A stretch of DNA of 64,000 nucleotides from Leptospira sp. (GCA_034439575.1 JAWXAQ010000005.1:1-64000), one strand, 5' to 3'. Counted from the stretch's first letter, positions 24,634 to 32,590 are shown. The notes: a model not told the origin generated them from the sequence alone. Made by a program: numbers and translations.

Positions 24634-25410
24634 ATGCCTTCCCTACTTAAAGATTCTACTTTTGTGTCCTTTGTGAGTGGCGGACCTGGTCCTTTGGATC
24701 TATTGACATTACGTGGACTTGAACGCATCAAAAATGCCCAAGTGATTCTTTACGATGCCCTACTCGATCCTGATTTTTTGACCATTTTCCCAAACGATGC
24801 GATTTGCCTGTATGTAGGCAAACGCGCAGGTCTTCATTCTAGAACACAAGATGAAATCAATCAGTTACTTTTATTTTATGCTATGGAAGGAAAAAGAATT
24901 GTTCGGCTAAAAGGGGGAGATGCTACCATCTTCGGCAGATTAGGTGAAGAGATACAAATCCTCAAAGAAAATCATATCAATTTTGAAATCATACCAGGGG
25001 TGAGCTCTGTGACTGCAGGAATCAGTAGCATACAATCATCACTTACACTCAGAGGAATCTCTCGCCAAATCATAATTCTTGATGGGCATACTATTCTGGA
25101 AGATAACAGGAGTTGGGTGGGTATGGAAAATTTTCTCGGAACCATAGTCATTCTAATGGGTACACAAAAAATAAAAGAACTTTCTATGATACTTATCTCA
25201 AAAGGAATTCCTGAAAATACGCCCATTGCTTTGGTTGAAAATGCATCGAGCCATATTTCATCTGCGAATTTTTTCACACTTAGAGAAGCGAGCCTAAATA
25301 GTTTTGCTAAAAGTAGCACAGGACCTGGAATTTTGTATGTAGGTGAAGCGCTACGGTCTGCCATGGAAGAATTGAAATTAGATGACAAAACGATATCCAG
25401 CCTTTCTTAA
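24634..25410 (+). CDS. cobA: Uroporphyrinogen-III C-methyltransferase (SUMT half of siroheme synthase)
   Basis: GGPGPLDLLT, YDAL, VRLKGGD, PGVSS; start ATG 24634 (TTG 24598 alternative). Confidence 0.88.
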   Translation: MPSLLKDSTFVSFVSGGPGPLDLLTLRGLERIKNAQVILYDALLDPDFLTIFPNDAICLYVGKRAGLHSRTQDEINQLLLFYAMEGKRIVRLKGGDATIFGRLGEEIQILKENHINFEIIPGVSSVTAGISSIQSSLTLRGISRQIIILDGHTILEDNRSWVGMENFLGTIVILMGTQKIKELSMILISKGIPENTPIALVENASSHISSANFFTLREASLNSFAKSSTGPGILYVGEALRSAMEELKLDDKTISSLS

Positions 25411-25972
25411 CCTCAAAGATGCAAATGTACTCATTGTAGGTGGTGGACTTGCCTGTCTTGAAAAACTGACTGGGTTAGAAAATACCGAAGCAAATATAAG
25501 TATCATTACAATCGAACTAAATCCAGAAGTTAAAAAATTTGTAGAAAATAAAACTAACATAACGACAATAATACGAGAAGTCAAGGATGTTGATTTAGAA
25601 AACCGCGATTTGATATTTCTTGCGACAAACAATTCAGAAATCAATGCAAAATTTAGAAAGGTAGCAAATCAGTTAAAGATTTTGACAAATTCCGTAGATG
25701 ATCCAAACAATTGTGATTTTTATTCAGCTTCACTCATTGATTTAGGTTCAGTGTCTTTTGCCATTTCCACCGATGGGAAATTTGCAGGACTAAGTGCCGC
25801 CTTACGTAAATTATTCGAAGAAATTATGCCCTCAGAAGATACAGAACTGTTTCAAAAAATTTATGAGATGCGCGCGGGTTTAAAAAAACGAATCCCCGAT
25901 ATGAATGAAAGAAAAAAAGTTTTAAAAGATATTATATTTAATTTAGAATCAAAATATTTTAATAAAGAATAA
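25382..25972 (+). CDS. Precorrin-2 dehydrogenase / sirohydrochlorin ferrochelatase (CysG N-terminal/SirC type)
   Basis: YPAFLNL..VLIVGGG, NSVDDP..CDFY, AISTDG. Confidence 0.88.
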   Translation: MTKRYPAFLNLKDANVLIVGGGLACLEKLTGLENTEANISIITIELNPEVKKFVENKTNITTIIREVKDVDLENRDLIFLATNNSEINAKFRKVANQLKILTNSVDDPNNCDFYSASLIDLGSVSFAISTDGKFAGLSAALRKLFEEIMPSEDTELFQKIYEMRAGLKKRIPDMNERKKVLKDIIFNLESKYFNKE

Positions 25973-26025
25973 TATCTCAACCATCTTTTATTCTAAAAAT
26001 ACTTCAATAGTTCAAAACCTAAGGA

Positions 26026-26694
26026 TTAAAATAAATACAATTGGTCATCAATTTGTTTTTTATTTTTTTTAGTTTTTGTCCATAACTTCTTATAATTAAA
26101 TCTTTCATTTGAAAATTTTTGTATCAGCGCTATTGGATTTTTTGTACCATCATTTAACCAGCGCAAGTATTCATTTTTCTCTATGAGTGCTGGTTGACGA
26201 TGATGAATTTCACTTATTTTTTGATTGGCTTCTGTCGTGATGATCACAAAACAATCATTTTTTTTTCCGAAAGAATCTACATAAACTATGTCCAATCCAG
26301 CAAACGCGAATACTTCGTTATGTGAAGGGAAGATTTCATATTTTTCCGTCGTGAATGGATCTACTTCTTTCCATTCAAAGTAGGATGTCACTGGAATTAG
26401 TATGCGTTTTTGATGTATCGCCTTTTTCCACAGAGGAGATGTTTCCAGTCTTTCTATGGTAGCTACATTGATCTGATCAATGGGTTCACCTTTTGAGGGA
26501 AGATTTTTGACTCCCCAGGTTTTTGCTTCGAGTGCATTTTTATTGTTTTTTCGAATGACCACTTCTTCGACTTTGGATGGATAAATTTCCTTTTCAATTT
26601 TTAGATTTGAATCACGGATGGTATCTTCAAATTCCAATTGAAACTGTTCTATCACTTGAGAAGATGATGCATTCAAAGCATAACGTCCGCACAT
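26026..26694 (-). CDS. SRAP (YedK/HMCES family) abasic-site protection protein
   Basis: N-terminal MCGRY with Cys2, YFEWK Glu and IHHRQP His. Confidence 0.92.
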   Translation of the reverse strand: MCGRYALNASSSQVIEQFQLEFEDTIRDSNLKIEKEIYPSKVEEVVIRKNNKNALEAKTWGVKNLPSKGEPIDQINVATIERLETSPLWKKAIHQKRILIPVTSYFEWKEVDPFTTEKYEIFPSHNEVFAFAGLDIVYVDSFGKKNDCFVIITTEANQKISEIHHRQPALIEKNEYLRWLNDGTKNPIALIQKFSNERFNYKKLWTKTKKNKKQIDDQLYLF

Positions 26695-26707
26695 GGTTCA
26701 TTTATCT

Positions 26708-28969
26708 TTAATAGAAAGATAAAATCAATTGGTTTTGTCTAAGATTTGTAAAAAATATATCATCAAACAAATGTTCTGCAACTTCCTCGAATGCCTTTAT
26801 CAAAAGTTCTCTATAAAATGGGATATATAGTTTAGGGATGAGAGTTTTTCCCAAAAGAGCTTCCTCAGATAAATATTCTTTAGCACCATATTTATTGTAA
26901 ATCACGAGGTATTTTATTTTTTCTCCGGGATTGATATCTATATTTAAATCCTTTAATTGTGATACACTTTGGCGTGAGGAACTATTGACTTTGTATTCGT
27001 CCAATTCTTTTGATATGGTTCTTTTTAAGAGTAATTTGTTAAAGGGAACTTCATTCTTTTCTAAGATCGCATCGTACTTATAAAATAATGTTTGGTATTC
27101 ACTATGTTTTTTTTTAAGTTCAGATACGGAATCACATGTTTGAAACAATGTTAGGAGATCATGCTGAAACTCTTTAATGAATTCAGGGATATCTTTTCTA
27201 CGACAAAAAATCCCTCTTAATTTTAATTTTCCATTTTTGAATTTTCCAAAATATCGATTCACGACTCCAATTTTCGGATCTTGCTTTGAGGCTGGAAAAA
27301 AAAGCCATAAATATTCTCCTTCAATCTTTAATTCAATTTTTGTTTGATCACTAATTTTTTGGCAAAGTGCTAAAATATCTATTTGATTGATTTTTTCATC
27401 ACCATAACCAGAAACAAACAATGAATCGGTTATCATATGTAACACTAATAAGTTGGCATCTTCGATAATATCTTTTGCTATAAGTAGGACTTCTCTTCCA
27501 ATCGCCGTCACAGATTCATGACTTTCTAAACGACCAAATTTTGCATTGCGGTAGCCTAAATAACCGAAAGATGTGACTAACACCCATTTAATGGCATTTT
27601 CACGTGCTTTATAAGTATTTGATTCTATCTGTTCAAGTTGCTTTTTATAAAACTTACGACGAGCGATTAAATTTTCTATTCCTTCCGAAACCACACCTCG
27701 CCTTTTTGCACAAATATAATAAGTTGTACCTGGGATATAGGTTTTGTTAGGTTCTTTTTCGCAACATAAACAATTTACGGTTTCTGGGCTAATATTATAA
27801 TGAGACATGATTGATGGATACATTTGTGCAAAATCAAGTTGAACAATATTTTCGAGAATCACACCTTTTGACATATCGGGTATACTTACCAATCCGCCTT
27901 TATCCACTCTAATTAATTCATATAGTGTTTTTTCACTTTCAATAGAAGATTTTTGCCAAGGCACAAGGTAATCGTGTTTTAATGCGACTGCCGTTTCTAT
28001 ATTTGTGAGTGCTGTGCCAGTGCTTGATCGTGCCATTCTTTGTATGGGAATGCGACTTAATCTTGAGAGTTCTATGATCCCTTGTAAAAAAGATTCTTTA
28101 AAAATAAATGAATTGTTACTATCTATATGGAGTCGCCCGAATAAGGGATAACTGGAAGCTCGAAAAATTACCTGCCCATATGTTTCGAAGGAGGTTCCTT
28201 TGTTTGTGATCTTTCTGATCGTCGAATTTATATCTCTATCAAATAATAATCTGAAGTTTGATCTTTGGGCTAAGTTAAATAAAAAAGGAAAAATGGATTG
28301 GTCACCAAAAGAACTCAACACTATGTCTGGATCTTTTTCAAATAGTATAACATTGATTCTTTGCAATAAATCTTTGGGATTTTGGAAGTACAATTCTTCG
28401 CAGAAATTTTCTCCAGAACGAAAGACTAATGGGTTTTTTGGTGAATATCCAATGCGGTGGTTTTCTTTATAAGAAATTTCTAGATATGAGAGTTTTGGAT
28501 AATCATAGTCATAACTAGCAATATCGCTCACCGAACGTATGTTACTTATTTTATTGTTTTCATATTCCAAATTAACAATGCCGAAGGGAAATATTTTTTT
28601 TTCGGAGAGGTAGGCGGTTGTGATTTCTATATCGGAATGAAAGATTTCTAATTTTTCATAAAAAGCATAAAGTTTTTGATAAATGGTTTTTAAAACGGTT
28701 GGTTTTGATAAATGGATTTTTTTAACAGAAATCCAATTCCCGCCATAGAATGATTTTTTTTGCACGACTGAGATTTCTCCGTGCAGTGCATTTAATTCTT
28801 TCAGTCGCTCGATAAACTTTTTTTCATATGATTCGGACCCCTTTATATAAATCGTTGGGTAATAGAAATCGGTAAAACATCTAGTTTCAGTTTCACTCTT
28901 TACCCAAACTATGATTTGTTCTTCTACATTATAGATATCAAACAGATACCCTTCAAAGTTTTGAGACAT
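26708..28969 (-). CDS. B-family DNA polymerase, PolB2-like group
   Basis: Motif A LDFAQMYPSIM, motif B KWVLVTSFGYLG, motif C HMITDS, LKLRGI; DKGGL before motif A. Confidence 0.88.
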   Translation of the reverse strand: MSQNFEGYLFDIYNVEEQIIVWVKSETETRCFTDFYYPTIYIKGSESYEKKFIERLKELNALHGEISVVQKKSFYGGNWISVKKIHLSKPTVLKTIYQKLYAFYEKLEIFHSDIEITTAYLSEKKIFPFGIVNLEYENNKISNIRSVSDIASYDYDYPKLSYLEISYKENHRIGYSPKNPLVFRSGENFCEELYFQNPKDLLQRINVILFEKDPDIVLSSFGDQSIFPFLFNLAQRSNFRLLFDRDINSTIRKITNKGTSFETYGQVIFRASSYPLFGRLHIDSNNSFIFKESFLQGIIELSRLSRIPIQRMARSSTGTALTNIETAVALKHDYLVPWQKSSIESEKTLYELIRVDKGGLVSIPDMSKGVILENIVQLDFAQMYPSIMSHYNISPETVNCLCCEKEPNKTYIPGTTYYICAKRRGVVSEGIENLIARRKFYKKQLEQIESNTYKARENAIKWVLVTSFGYLGYRNAKFGRLESHESVTAIGREVLLIAKDIIEDANLLVLHMITDSLFVSGYGDEKINQIDILALCQKISDQTKIELKIEGEYLWLFFPASKQDPKIGVVNRYFGKFKNGKLKLRGIFCRRKDIPEFIKEFQHDLLTLFQTCDSVSELKKKHSEYQTLFYKYDAILEKNEVPFNKLLLKRTISKELDEYKVNSSSRQSVSQLKDLNIDINPGEKIKYLVIYNKYGAKEYLSEEALLGKTLIPKLYIPFYRELLIKAFEEVAEHLFDDIFFTNLRQNQLILSFY

Positions 28970-29228
28970 CGTTTGACTTTAATTTCTCAACTTGGTTTTT
29001 AAGATCGTTTAAATCTGTCTTTAACTCGACTAAGGCGGAAAGTAAGATCGTCTCTATGGAATAAGGATTGGAAATCATGACTCCTGCGACCAATTGCCTT
29101 TTGGCAATCCGCATAATTTCATCGAAAGCTTCTTTGTGTTTTTTTGCTAAGCCTCGTCTAAAATCTTTAAACCTTTCATCAGCGAGTGATTGGATTTGCC
29201 GAGAGTAAGGAGTGATCGTCCTGCCCAT
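28953..29228 (-). CDS. Small alpha-helical PolB2-associated protein (arCOG07300-like)
   Basis: MGRTITPY..FRRGL..FDE..NP..LLS pattern recalled from archaeal PolB2 partners; GGAGG RBS before ATG 29228; overlaps both neighbours. Confidence 0.7.
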   Translation of the reverse strand: MGRTITPYSRQIQSLADERFKDFRRGLAKKHKEAFDEIMRIAKRQLVAGVMISNPYSIETILLSALVELKTDLNDLKNQVEKLKSNDVSKL

Positions 29229-29766
29229 AAATTCCTCCATTATTTTGCGTGATCATATTTGGAATTTGAATCACCTTTCCAATTTTTTGTAAATTTACTA
29301 GATACTGTAAGTAAGTCGCATCATCTTTTGGTGTAGATTCAGAGAATACAAAAGGGATGTTCATCTGGACGAGACGTTCCAGTTTTTGTGTGAGTATTTT
29401 TAATAAGTGTATACGTTCGTCTTTTTTTACATCGCCGTCAAAGAACTGTTTGGAGGGAGCCAAAAAAATATTGATCCTGGAATGTTGGTTACTTTTTACC
29501 GAGCTTGCAGAAATAGATGTAAGTAAATCTAGGAGTTGGTATGGCGTAAAAGCTCTTTGAATTGTAATGTTATGCAATGCGAAAAAATCCAATCCCCTTG
29601 TTGCTTCCGCGATTTGATATCCTCGTAAACGTATGGCACAATCGATCACATGAACTTGAGCACGACTTGCAAGAAGCATTTCAATCAGAGAGTGGGCGAG
29701 TGAATTTGCCTTTCTGCCAACAACAATGGTATTGATGAAATTGGCAGGAATTATATCTGGAACCAT
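29179..29766 (-). CDS. Inactivated RadA/RecA-like protein
   Basis: VHVIDCAIR and NITIQRAFTPYQL resemble RadA core strands; Walker A eroded to VGRKANS. Confidence 0.65.
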   Translation of the reverse strand: MVPDIIPANFINTIVVGRKANSLAHSLIEMLLASRAQVHVIDCAIRLRGYQIAEATRGLDFFALHNITIQRAFTPYQLLDLLTSISASSVKSNQHSRINIFLAPSKQFFDGDVKKDERIHLLKILTQKLERLVQMNIPFVFSESTPKDDATYLQYLVNLQKIGKVIQIPNMITQNNGGIYGQDDHSLLSANPITR

Positions 29767-29853
29767 AAAATGATGATCTTACCAGACAGGAAAAATGTAA
29801 ACAAAAATATGCTTAACGCAAGAATAGTATATTTACGAAAAATTGCGGATTAC

Positions 29854-29866
29854 TTGTAATTTACAA
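29854..29866. promoter_or_regulatory. Palindrome upstream of the PolB2 cassette, candidate operator
   Basis: TTGTAA-T-TTACAA, about 90 bp before the first gene of the cassette. Confidence 0.35.
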
Positions 29867-29926
29867 AACGAAACAACCTATCCAATTATGTCGCTTCAGA
29901 TACTTGGAACACTATTACAAAGCTCT

Positions 29927-30535
29927 TTACTCCTTAAATTTCACTTTAACTTCCGTTAAGGGAAATTCATTTTCCCACATCCCTGCCATTGGCACATTGA
30001 TCACGATTTTATTTGGTCCGTCATTTCTTGCTGTCCAATCACCAGCTATCCTCTGTTCTGTGAAAGAAACAGACTTGATTGGGAAAGGGAAAAAAATCTC
30101 AAATTGGATATGTTCGGCAAGAGTATTGAAACGCATCAAATCATCCCGCTTTTTGGCTTCTGCGACAATAGAGGAGATATTCCCTTTTTCGATATTTAAA
30201 GTTCGTAAAAGTGGGGAACTTTGACTCGTGTCAATGGCGATCACAAAATTCGAAAACTCATCCCCCTCTTCTTTATAGAGATAAAATTTGAGTCCAGGTG
30301 GTATAATCTTTGTGATGTCTTTGAAAGTATAATGCGATTCTTTGATCACAAGTTCGGTTTCGGCAATGGGTGTTAAACCACTACCCAGACTATTTGCCGT
30401 GTTTTTGGTTTTGATGCGCTTTTCAAAGATTTGAAGTTCGCCCGAAAGATCAGACTTCACATTGATCTTGATATTCCCACCTGCGCAAAAATGGAAAAAT
30501 ACCGAAATGGAAATGATAAAAAAGAAATTCCTCAT
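29927..30535 (-). CDS. Hypothetical lipoprotein
   Basis: MRN + hydrophobic stretch + FHFC spirochaetal-type lipobox. Confidence 0.65.
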   Translation of the reverse strand: MRNFFFIISISVFFHFCAGGNIKINVKSDLSGELQIFEKRIKTKNTANSLGSGLTPIAETELVIKESHYTFKDITKIIPPGLKFYLYKEEGDEFSNFVIAIDTSQSSPLLRTLNIEKGNISSIVAEAKKRDDLMRFNTLAEHIQFEIFFPFPIKSVSFTEQRIAGDWTARNDGPNKIVINVPMAGMWENEFPLTEVKVKFKE

Positions 30536-30554: not shown

Positions 30555-32150
30555 ATGGGCATTCCGTTCATCGAAAAAATGATTTATCCAAAACAATTTC
30601 CATCGCATACACGAGATATTTCCAGTGAGCACCATTTTTACCGAAGATTTGAAAGGGAAATGGATGGAGAACAAAATGTATACTATTCTGTGACACTCAT
30701 TACACCAGATGTCCCGATGCGCGAAATTGATTTTGTAGTCGTAAGTCCTTACGGAATTGTCTGCATCGAATTGAAAAATGGTCGTTGGAAATTAAATCGA
30801 GGTAAATGGCAATTTTATAATGTAAGAGAACGCGAATGGAACTATGTAGAAGGGAAATCCTATGACGGTCCCGTATCGCAATCCAGTTCCCAAATAACAT
30901 TACTTAAAGAGTTTTTAAAAAATCATAATGGACTAGAAGATTTTTTTCCAGATTCCTATTATGATGCAGCAATCTTCTTTCTTAAAAATAATAAAAATGA
31001 TTTTTATCTAAAAGATAGAAACGCTCCTTGGATTTTTGGCAAGGAAGATTTAGAAAATGAAAGTATTTCCCTCCAAGAAATTATTAATAAAATACAAGAT
31101 ATAAATCATCGAGAGCCTCTTGATAAAAAAATTATACAATCAATTCACGATGTCCTTGTAAAAAATCTTAACTTTATCTCAGGCATTACAAAAAGAACCA
31201 AACAAAATGATGAACGTTTGGTATCCCTCACGAAAGAACAATTTTCCCTCATTTCAAGCATCATACAAACAGAAAGATCTATGGTCTTTGGAGTTTCTGG
31301 ATCTGGAAAATCACTGTTAGCTGGTGAATTAAGTTTAAAATTATCTGAACAAAATCAAAAAACACTTATTTGGCAAGGTTCCCTCTCTCTTTATCAATTA
31401 TGGAAAAATGAAATTGATGTTATGGATGAAAGACATCGACCGATGATCATTCATAATATAGAAGACATAGCACATTTAAACTATGAATATCTAGTGATGG
31501 ATCAAATTGATGATTGGATCATAAATCATGATCTGAAAGATTTACTTTTTTACATTCCTGAAATTTTTTGGAAAAAACAAAAATGGAGTCTATTCTTAAA
31601 TCGAAAACTCAAATCTTCATCAAACCCAATTCTTAATTTTTTAGAAACAAATGTTCAAAAATCTTGGGATATTTTGAGAAATATTAGAAATTCTCCAGAA
31701 ATTGCAAATTTTGCGAATTTGATTAATGCGGGTGATGGAGGCGATTCAGTTTTAGAGACATTAACAGATGTTCAATTAGTTTCCATGACAAATAGTGACA
31801 GCATTATCGAAAAATTAAAATGGTGTTTTGGTTATGCGAAAAAAATTCTCGACCTTGTTACAGAAGATATCATTGTATTATGCCCTAATGAAGAATATAA
31901 AACACAAAATCCCGAATTATTATTATTTTTAAAGGAACATGCAGTGACACTCGTTACGCTAGAAGAATATTCTGGTTTAGAAGAAAGTTGCGGTATGATA
32001 CTTGGTTTTGCAAATTGGAACACACAAAAAACAAAAAATGATATCTCTGAAGCCGTATTGCACTTCAGAGACCTAGTCTGTATTTTGTATGATGAAAAGG
32101 AAGAAACCTCCATCAAACAAGCATTAGAAAAAAAAGGCTCTGGCCCGTAA
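30555..32150 (+). CDS. NERD nuclease domain fused to a degenerate P-loop helicase-like domain
   Basis: EIDFVVVSPYGIVCIELKN (NERD); Walker A GVSGSGKS; NIRNSPEI; Walker B region MDQID. Confidence 0.75.
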   Translation: MGIPFIEKMIYPKQFPSHTRDISSEHHFYRRFEREMDGEQNVYYSVTLITPDVPMREIDFVVVSPYGIVCIELKNGRWKLNRGKWQFYNVREREWNYVEGKSYDGPVSQSSSQITLLKEFLKNHNGLEDFFPDSYYDAAIFFLKNNKNDFYLKDRNAPWIFGKEDLENESISLQEIINKIQDINHREPLDKKIIQSIHDVLVKNLNFISGITKRTKQNDERLVSLTKEQFSLISSIIQTERSMVFGVSGSGKSLLAGELSLKLSEQNQKTLIWQGSLSLYQLWKNEIDVMDERHRPMIIHNIEDIAHLNYEYLVMDQIDDWIINHDLKDLLFYIPEIFWKKQKWSLFLNRKLKSSSNPILNFLETNVQKSWDILRNIRNSPEIANFANLINAGDGGDSVLETLTDVQLVSMTNSDSIIEKLKWCFGYAKKILDLVTEDIIVLCPNEEYKTQNPELLLFLKEHAVTLVTLEEYSGLEESCGMILGFANWNTQKTKNDISEAVLHFRDLVCILYDEKEETSIKQALEKKGSGP

Positions 32151-32492
32151 GCCGGATTCTGTTTTATGCGATCATCTATCTTATGCTCTCTACCCACAAC
32201 CTGGCGGGACAGCTCATAACGGTTGCTTACTTGAGATTGCACATCGGAGGGTTTACCTTGCCTTATTTTTTACAAAATAAGCGGTGGGCTCTTACCCCAC
32301 CATTTCACCCTTACCAAATTCCAAGTTTTAAAATTGGAATTTGGCAGTATTTTTTCTGTTGCACTTTCCGTATACGATCGGTCACCCTTTCGCATCCCGA
32401 GTGTTACTCGGTCCGATTGTCCCCTAGTGTCCGGACTTTCCTCCCCTTTATTTATAATATTATATTTAAAGAGGCGATCGCTCAGCCAGAGC
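32137..32492 (-). ncRNA. rnpB: RNase P RNA
   Basis: Minus strand contains GAGGAAAGTCCGG and ACAGAATCCGGCTTA; P1 helix GCTCTGGCT/GGCCAGAGC closes the ends; T-run follows. Confidence 0.96.
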
Positions 32493-32590
32493 TAAGACTA
32501 TTTTTTTTAAATAATTTTGTGAGTCGAGACGATTAAACACTTGGAAATGGCATGATCTATGCAATGATATGTATATTAGCGAGCTTATAA

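Follow-up and report, generated by a model that had tools for sequence, protein, structure and literature searches.

In this work, a stretch of 64,000 nucleotides (nt) of Leptospira sp. DNA (GCA_034439575.1 JAWXAQ010000005.1:1-64000; referred to below as the window) was analyzed computationally around four adjacent minus-strand genes at positions 26,026 to 29,766. We conclude, with a probability of about 0.85, that these genes form a mutasome operon of the bacterial PolB2 type, that its SRAP gene is co-transcribed, and that the operon comes from a second, horizontally mobile lineage in the Leptospiraceae and was inserted as a bare 3.95-kilobase (kb) cassette. The genes encode an inactivated RadA-like protein (iRadA), a small helical partner (PPB2), a B-family DNA polymerase (PolB2) and an SRAP protein. 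The system itself is already catalogued; the additions made here are its near-universal presence in the Leptospiraceae, the mobile SRAP-bearing lineage and a clamp-type tail on the SRAP protein.

The association of PolB2 with an inactivated RadA and arCOG07300 was described in archaea and in "several bacterial genomes" by Makarova et al. 2014 (PMC4104785), who also placed lexA within some of the bacterial operons. Timinskas et al. 2025 (PMC11791011) renamed the two partners iRadA and PPB2, gave iRadA-PPB2-PolB2 as the only order in bacteria, described the MGRT arm of PPB2 as the key interface, explained the D(K/R) motif, reported beta-clamp motifs in iRadA or PolB2, and named lexA, SRAP and DUF72 as enriched neighbours, the SRAP association being "enriched to some degree"; its main text mentions neither "Leptospira" nor "Spirochaet". 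The Dpo2 protein of Sulfolobus islandicus is an active polymerase without exonuclease that extends primer ends at mismatches or opposite lesions (Feng et al. 2022, PMC8764526), and literature cited in PMC11791011 describes it as damage-inducible. The original prediction, made from the sequence alone, had proposed a candidate bacterial mutasome; its components and its damage-tolerance reading fit the published model, but the system is not new, as PMC4104785 and PMC11791011 describe it. The accompanying statement that no spirochaete PolB2 locus has been characterized experimentally agrees with our literature searches, which found none at the level of listings. To our knowledge, experimental tests of PolB2 mutasomes come from Sulfolobus only, and no example from a bacterium has been studied at the bench. 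Because saprophytic Leptospira are culturable and genetically tractable, they could provide a practical bacterial PolB2 model.

Gene content of the operon

The listing of open reading frames (ORFs) in the window contains four minus-strand ORFs in the same orientation (29766..29179, 29240..28953, 28969..26708 and 26694..26026), which were assigned as follows, with product lengths in amino acids (aa).

29179-29766, minus strand: iRadA gene, 195 aa
28953-29228, minus strand: PPB2 gene, 91 aa from the second ATG (the longest ORF, 29240..28953, encodes 95 aa)
26708-28969, minus strand: PolB2 gene, 753 aa
26026-26694, minus strand: SRAP gene, 222 aa

The iRadA and PPB2 genes overlap by 50 nt, the PPB2 and PolB2 genes overlap by 17 nt, and a gap of 13 nt separates PolB2 from SRAP, so that the tight coupling of four co-oriented genes is exactly as originally described. 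The start of PPB2 was placed at 29228 because a GGAGG Shine-Dalgarno sequence lies 5 nt ahead of this second in-frame ATG of the small ORF; the product is then the 91-aa protein beginning with MGRT that the original prediction had given. No terminator-like site was found on the minus strand in a scan of positions 25900-30000. A synteny survey had been proposed as a check, and in the loci surveyed the same gene order, iRadA-PPB2-PolB2, co-oriented and adjacent, recurs. The four genes are far beyond chance ORFs, because they are homologous and syntenic in dozens of other loci. The operon, which belongs to a free-living Leptospira, is genuine and intact.

The 753-aa protein matches the Pfam family PF00136 (DNA_pol_B) with E 9.4e-31. 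Among the NCBIfam models, the archaeal-type NF004416 ("type B DNA-directed DNA polymerase") matches best, with E 3.7e-109, and no Pol II model scores above 69.5 bits. Its best PDB sequence matches are archaeal PolBs from Pyrococcus, Thermococcus and Sulfolobus (E 9e-38 to 1e-22), and E. coli Pol II is named in none of the 60 PDB matches shown. The nearest plasmid-borne relatives beyond Leptospirales are haloarchaeal type-B polymerases with 27-33% identity, and the sole phage match outside Leptospira is weak (23% identity across 30% of the query). By the NF004416, PDB and phage matches, the enzyme is closer to archaeal PolBs than to bacterial Pol II or phage PolBs; a grouping with Pol II or with phage PolBs would have spoken against the original prediction. 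Motif A retains D379, Y384 and P385, motif C reads I513-T514-D515 (ITD replacing DTD), and the D-R motif is present as D244-R245. These motifs, together with PF00136 and the iRadA and PPB2 partners, uphold the description of a PolB2-type family-B polymerase. The ExoI position reads D11-I-Y13, with the glutamate missing, in an alignment that held no reference enzyme and covered ExoI only, and proofreading is apparently lost. This polymerase is the only family-B enzyme in the genome of the window (G000), which has a single Y-family polymerase, encoded by one IMS-domain gene at C16:26568.

Neither of the two small proteins (195 and 91 aa) has a match in Pfam. For iRadA, the AlphaFold2 model has a predicted local distance difference test (pLDDT) value of 84.9 and a predicted template-modelling score (pTM) of 0.79, and all top matches listed by Foldseek are Rad51, RadA, DMC1 or RAD51 paralogues (E 3e-6 to 2e-5; query template-modelling score, TMq, 0.49-0.63). 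When the iRadA profile was compared with PDB sequences, the first match was RadA 4a6p (E 0.0038). The 195 aa fit the Rad51/RadA core fold, with the N-terminal domain and the ATPase motifs missing: the Walker A position reads VVGRKANS, and GK[ST] is found there in no member of the alignment of 45 homologues. In PPB2, the N-terminal arm is MGRTITPYSR, and M1, G2, R3, T4, Y8 and S9 are invariant in all 18 aligned Leptospiraceae homologues. The PPB2 model (pLDDT 81.4) has a free arm of residues 1-7 followed by helices at 8-26, 29-47 and 57-90, the last one long. A protein of ~90 aa with three helices and an MGRT arm fits the PPB2 of PMC11791011, to the description of which it was matched. Both assignments of the original prediction are thus borne out, the RadA-like protein without a working Walker A by its Rad51/RadA fold (Foldseek E ~3e-6) and the lack of GK[ST], and the PolB2 partner by the MGRT..YS arm and the three-helix model.

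The last 16 codons of iRadA share their bases, in another frame, with the MGRT..PYS arm of PPB2 (29179-29228, minus strand; the same junction in L013-L019). Within this overlap the iRadA tail ends in a clamp-like (S/T)LF in 7 of 10 loci of the window's lineage; the window and its two closest relatives have SLL. Dual coding with the PPB2 arm may have shaped this tail.

The residues of the active site bear on whether the three core proteins are relics or regulators without catalytic activity, which would bind stalled forks or the clamp but synthesize no DNA. Such a reading, which we consider highly improbable, could draw on the replaced first DxD aspartate (I513), on a motif B that departs from the textbook form, on a RadA paralogue without a P-loop and on the earlier view of PolB2, with the inactivation proposed by Makarova et al. 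2014 (PMC4104785). However, D379 of motif A and D515 of motif C, which bind metal, do not vary among the 12 aligned sequences, the four ORFs are intact and conserved over lineages that share only 44-74% identity, and S. islandicus Dpo2, which has the same substitution, is a robust polymerase (PMC8764526, PMC11791011).

Two PolB2 lineages and the inserted cassette

Relatives of the window polymerase were found in 40 of the 41 genomes of the genus, the single miss being a genome that is 67% complete; across the family Leptospiraceae the count is 100 of 114 genomes, or 96 of 108 when only those of good quality are taken. Most copies share 44-50% identity with the window PolB2 and are referred to as the common class. 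A rarer class, with 56-100% identity, was found in 11 genomes (G000, G004, G020, G032, G048, G065, G077, G082, G095, G098 and G104), of which eight also carry the common class; G000, G032 and G048 have the rarer class alone. Among cultivable species, L. meyeri and L. bourretii have proteins of this lineage that match at 72-74% identity. A FastTree phylogeny was built with 101 rows, obtained from 108 loci by leaving out three duplicate contigs and four short matches; its supports are local Shimodaira-Hasegawa (SH)-like values from a quick method, not bootstraps. In this tree the rarer class is one clade of 13 loci with SH-like support of 100, which includes both fetched records of LE1-like phages, and the common Leptospira class is a clade of 36 with support of 100, the internal order of which tracks genera. 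The root is one long haloarchaeal branch, an outgroup with no iRadA or PPB2 match beside the polymerase. Because the supports are local and this single long branch sets the root, no direction of transfer is inferred. The near-universal presence of PolB2 in the Leptospiraceae, in two lineages, is an addition of the present analysis.

In relatives, the common PolB2 operon occupies a site that corresponds to C12:77322-84000 of G000. No polymerase is found in this region of G000, and the genes on the right-hand side of the site are unmatched in G000. From this comparison, the genome appears to have lost the resident PolB2 operon and to have kept only the mobile one, which is located between two convergent genes in the following segment.

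25973-29926, no strand assigned: inserted segment, bounded by the stop codons of cysG-N (25382-25972) and of an LBF_1134-family gene (29927-30535), which converge on it

The segment is 3,954 nt long, and its G+C content (GC) is 0.31-0.34, versus 0.36-0.39 in the flanks. In four of the five relatives examined (G003, G004, G013 and G020) the cysG-N and LBF_1134 genes abut, and G036 carries a different insert of 1.3 kb at this site, a gene for a 359-aa membrane protein. No direct repeats, terminal repeats or target-site duplication were found at the borders of the cassette. Its flanking genes differ among all loci of the clade that were examined. A phage-integrase-family gene (~220 aa) adjoins the cassette in L013, L014 and L016, and an annotated integrase adjoins it in L030. 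All four matching records of Leptospira phages are LE1-like and hold the PolB2 lineage of the window with 57-58% identity, and all four genes are present in L030 and L031, the two records that were opened. In two of these records, the locus tags listed as predicted prophage in a table of PMC4758666 exclude the cassette genes. The cassette looks like cargo of LE1-like replicons, because its locus tags lie outside the predicted prophage ranges.

Such contexts could also mean that LE1-like phage-plasmids use the polymerase module for their own replication or maintenance, and that the window holds a stranded piece of such an element, which would copy element DNA instead of serving damage tolerance in the chromosome of the host. 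The four deposited LE1-like phage records, the integrase-family genes adjoining four loci, the contexts that vary in every locus and the insertion found here are all in keeping with it. It is nevertheless very unlikely in our judgement, since the sister lineage is chromosomal, has a tree that tracks genera and is present in most Leptospiraceae, and since the enzyme lacks the first aspartate of motif C and the ExoI glutamate. Furthermore, the genes found with the polymerase are those of iRadA, PPB2 and SRAP and not those of a primase, helicase or terminal protein, the window has no further phage gene alongside the cassette, and the position outside the predicted prophage locus tags (PMC4758666) is cargo-like. 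If the lineage is a mobile mutasome operon, as we prefer to read it, a complete B-family mutagenesis module with an abasic-site protector would move between species on phage-like replicons, which bears on the acquisition of stress-induced mutagenesis.

Several observations were made at the borders and in the surroundings of the cassette. The 15-mer AGCGACATAATTGGA, located at 29881-29895 (minus strand) and at L029:1718-1732 (plus strand), marks the LBF_1134-proximal edge of two unrelated inserts; its orientation in the insert of G036 is opposite to that in the cassette of G000, where it is unique. A dif-like (Xer) site at the cassette was considered and rejected, just one half-site being present. 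At other loci the neighbours of the cassette include a SIR2_2-domain protein and a DUF6908 protein (L001:3516-4811 and L018:4591-5007, both on the minus strand), which fits variable islands.

SRAP as the fourth gene and clamp-type tails

The 222-aa protein matches the Pfam family SRAP (PF02586) with E 8.2e-36, its search of the PDB returns YedK and relatives, and its C2, E107 and H164 are shared by all 28 aligned SRAP proteins, so that the original identification stands with the catalytic Cys2, Glu and His intact. It is the sole SRAP protein encoded in this genome, and a SRAP gene is present somewhere in 37 of the 41 genomes of the genus. In the window's clade, SRAP is located on the same strand within 30 nt of the PolB2 stop codon in 10 of 13 loci; it lies 738 nt downstream in L031 and 1,659 nt downstream in L003, where it is cut by the contig end, and in L017 there is none within 6 kb of the cassette. 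None of the 12 common-class loci taken from genomes has SRAP within ~6 kb. Among 79 other contig loci, seven of which had less than 900 nt of downstream sequence, SRAP is directly downstream in three that fall outside the clade (L071, L072 and L078), and two more have it on the opposite strand, 2.3 kb off. The original prediction had described an archaeal-style cassette extended with SRAP: SRAP is indeed the fourth gene, but this arrangement is not peculiar to the present genome and is a feature of one mobile Leptospiraceae lineage.

At its C-terminus, the SRAP protein has a Lys-rich linker followed by DDQLYLF. The SRAP proteins of Leptospira cassettes end in [Q/N/D]xxLF, whereas more distant aligned SRAP proteins, with one exception, do not. 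The C-terminal tail of PolB2 is NQLILSFY, and the lineage consensus is QL(L/I)xxF. The reference for a beta-clamp motif was the QL[SD]LF-type consensus as quoted in PMC11791011. No beta-clamp motif on a bacterial SRAP protein was found in print in a literature search at the level of listings. Human HMCES, a protein of the same family, binds PCNA through a C-terminal PCNA-interacting (PIP) box, and the clamp-type tail of SRAP suggests a bacterial parallel to the PCNA-tethered HMCES.

Complex prediction was applied to the clamp DnaN and SRAP residues 186-222, both given as alignments, along with three controls. The predicted complex scored 0.59, versus 0.01 for the best control, and lends weak support to docking of the tail. 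Of 80 solved complexes, 58 reach the mark used for such scores, as do 2 of 110 mismatched pairs; scores at the mark that do not exceed 0.60 belong to only 7 of the 80 solved complexes and to both of the passing mismatches. At least 85% of the contacts are common to the runs, and the partner has a pLDDT of at least 43. Because clamp-peptide complexes have already been solved, this pass may reflect memory or likeness.

Two views of the fourth gene were weighed. In one, SRAP is merely a neighbour, co-located with PolB2 as SOS cargo without mechanistic coupling, which we regard as rather unlikely. This would be in line with the fact that SRAP is encoded in 37 of the 41 genomes of the genus, usually at another locus, with its absence within 6 kb of all 12 common-lineage loci and from L017 of the mobile lineage, and with the wording "enriched to some degree" in PMC11791011. 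It is opposed by the 13-nt gap to PolB2 with no terminator-like site, by a position that 10 of the 13 loci in the lineage share even as SRAP identity drops to 35-43%, by the directly downstream SRAP genes that arose or persisted outside the clade in L071, L072 and L078, and by the clamp-type tails on both SRAP and PolB2. In the other view, SRAP is a working fifth part of a mobile mutasome: its tail and that of PolB2 would each take one pocket of the beta-clamp dimer, an abasic site in exposed single-stranded template would be cross-linked and shielded, and the PolB2 complex, without proofreading, would then bypass it or extend from it. LE1-like phage-plasmids and integrase islands would spread the package between Leptospira species, as plasmids spread mucAB, and here it would have replaced the resident PolB2 operon and SRAP. 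Taken as a whole, this extended scheme is unlikely.

Regulation, proposed mechanism and relation to known systems

Two sites were found between the iRadA start codon and the end of the inserted segment.

29812-29827, minus strand: LexA-box-like 16-mer CTATTCTTGCGTTAAG, beginning 61 nt 5' of the iRadA ATG
29773-29801, minus strand: promoter-like site, TTTACA, 17-nt spacer, GATCAT, with the -10 element ending 7 nt before the ATG

The consensus derived for LexA1 of L. interrogans by chromatin immunoprecipitation sequencing (ChIP-seq) is CTnnACnnnnGTnnAG (PMC4756842). The 16-mer has one mismatch to this consensus, which comes from a different branch of the genus. For background, 49 of 5000 windows of 120 nt reach one mismatch or fewer to the LexA1 consensus. 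In G000, the lexA gene (C12:127898) is preceded by CTATTCTTCTGTTAAG, which ends 1 nt before the lexA ATG and equals the operon site at 14 of 14 fixed positions. The shared pattern, CTATTCTTNNGTTAAG, occurs at just these two places in the 4.1-Mb genome; two more sites have one mismatch to it, and 46 sites in total have two or fewer. With the window included, 9 of 12 loci in its lineage have a box-like site at -61 to -63, and two more have one at -53; because these loci are kin, the shared position is a matter of conservation and gives no independent support. In the common lineage, CTATACATATAAATAG is located ~21 nt ahead of the ATG, with two mismatches. The promoter-like site scores 9 of 12 against the consensus as a pattern match only, and its TGTTTAC element is kept upstream in other loci of the window's lineage. 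Judged by these sites, the operon is likely to be under LexA/SOS control.

Four other candidate elements were rejected. For the older Leptospira box, TTTGN5CAAA, 10 sites were counted in the window versus 6.0 expected, none of them 5' of the operon, and the ChIP-seq consensus was preferred. The palindrome TTGTAAATTACAA at about -100, which occurs twice in the genome, is not kept in the other loci. Rather than an operator, TAAGCA-N6-TGTTTA, unique in the genome, more probably joins the right-hand end of the box to the -35-like TGTTTAC. The heptamer GACATAA is found upstream of 30 of 91 PolB2 operons, versus 154 of 5000 background windows, and also ahead of lexA and recA. In G000, 72 of 192 copies of GACATAA[TC] fall within the 8% of DNA that is non-ORF (e.g., C12:127864, C33:94627 and C7:227437), and it precedes 40 genes, among them lexA, recA and dnaN. 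Since it is spread through non-ORF DNA ahead of so many genes, including dnaN, it was rejected as a damage element; because of its concentration in non-ORF DNA, it is probably a general -10-type promoter element of the organism.

The mechanism that we propose for the PolB2 cassette is drawn by homology with Sulfolobus Dpo2 and from published models. DNA damage would lead to cleavage of LexA and derepression of the operon. PolB2 would join one iRadA and a PPB2 trimer, with the MGRT arm lying between PolB2 and iRadA, and the complex would dock on the beta clamp via the PolB2 tail. Without proofreading, it would extend primer ends placed by the genome's single Y-family polymerase or the replicase opposite lesions or mismatches, and such extension would amount to mutagenic damage tolerance. 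SRAP, tethered to the clamp by its own tail, would cross-link via Cys2 to abasic sites in the single-stranded template and so prevent breakage. From the SRAP and PolB2 steps it follows that the cassette would supply both shielding and extension activities.

A number of points weigh against this reading of the locus. A look-up of sequencing runs listed no RNA run that contains the locus. The PolB2 class was set by motifs, partners and published descriptions, and the tree was built without a reference Dpo2; a scan of the contig collection for archaeal loci returned only Leptospirales-type relatives. The score of the polymerase with NF004416, 366 bits, is below the curated cut-off of 516 bits, the ExoI alignment held no reference, as noted above, and the fold search of the PDB with PPB2 gave no significant match (best E 2.5). 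SRAP is dispensable for keeping the other three genes, because L017 retains them without it, and the predicted docking of its tail on the clamp is graded as weak. As for LexA control, the reading relies on a consensus from L. interrogans, in another branch of the genus, and the box-like site sits upstream of the promoter-like site, not over it. In this genome recA has no full box, its best site having two mismatches and the 16-mer that bears a half-site three, and the best site of dinB has two mismatches at -130. Because recA and dinB are without a clear box, the 16-mer could belong to another regulator or be shared for other reasons.

Two neighbouring features lie beyond the inserted segment. 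Positions 32132-32493 (minus strand) of the window are a full-length bacterial RNase P RNA (RF00010, 241.8 bits), which explains the 74-85% identity of an "intergenic" piece in relatives and makes the ORFs at 32183-32536 and 31832-32242 spurious. At 30555-32150 (plus strand), a 531-aa protein is encoded with an N-terminal NERD domain (E 2.1e-14) and a weakly P-loop or helicase-like middle part. The protein faintly resembles the defence kinases MAD6 and PglW in their N-terminal parts; it occurs at the same place in G003, G004 and G013, and is unmatched in G036.

The locus shares with the published bacterial PolB2 operon the three proteins and their order, the MGRT arm of PPB2 and, in the polymerase, a DxD motif changed at the first aspartate and the D-(K/R) motif. 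Both also have a C-terminal motif of the clamp type, SRAP nearby and, here putatively, a connection with LexA. It differs in that the link to LexA is a box-like site only, with no lexA gene at the locus, in that SRAP is a fixed fourth gene of the lineage, translationally close to the polymerase, and in that the lineage is mobile, being found on LE1-like replicons, beside integrases and as an insertion. Clamp-type tails are found here on PolB2 and SRAP, whereas PMC11791011 reports them for iRadA or PolB2.

Dpo2 of Sulfolobus islandicus is likewise a family-B enzyme that has lost the first DxD aspartate and is partnered by an inactive RadA and a small helical protein, and it is devoid of proofreading, as the present enzyme apparently is; it is archaeal, uses PCNA rather than the beta clamp and has other regulators, and it is likened to the present enzyme by description. 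Pol V of E. coli (UmuD'2C-RecA) and ImuA-ImuB-DnaE2 are also SOS-type mutagenic machines that combine a polymerase, a RecA-fold partner and a clamp motif, but their polymerases are of the Y or C family, not the B family, and they are analogues only; no homologues of UmuDC or ImuA-ImuB-DnaE2 subunits were found in the window, and the four proteins have no such domains in Pfam or NCBIfam. Relatives of these machines are also borne on plasmids or other elements, as mucAB and rumAB are. Finally, the SRAP protein of the window keeps the catalytic Cys2, Glu and His of HMCES and YedK, and differs from them in that its gene is operonic with a translesion-type polymerase.

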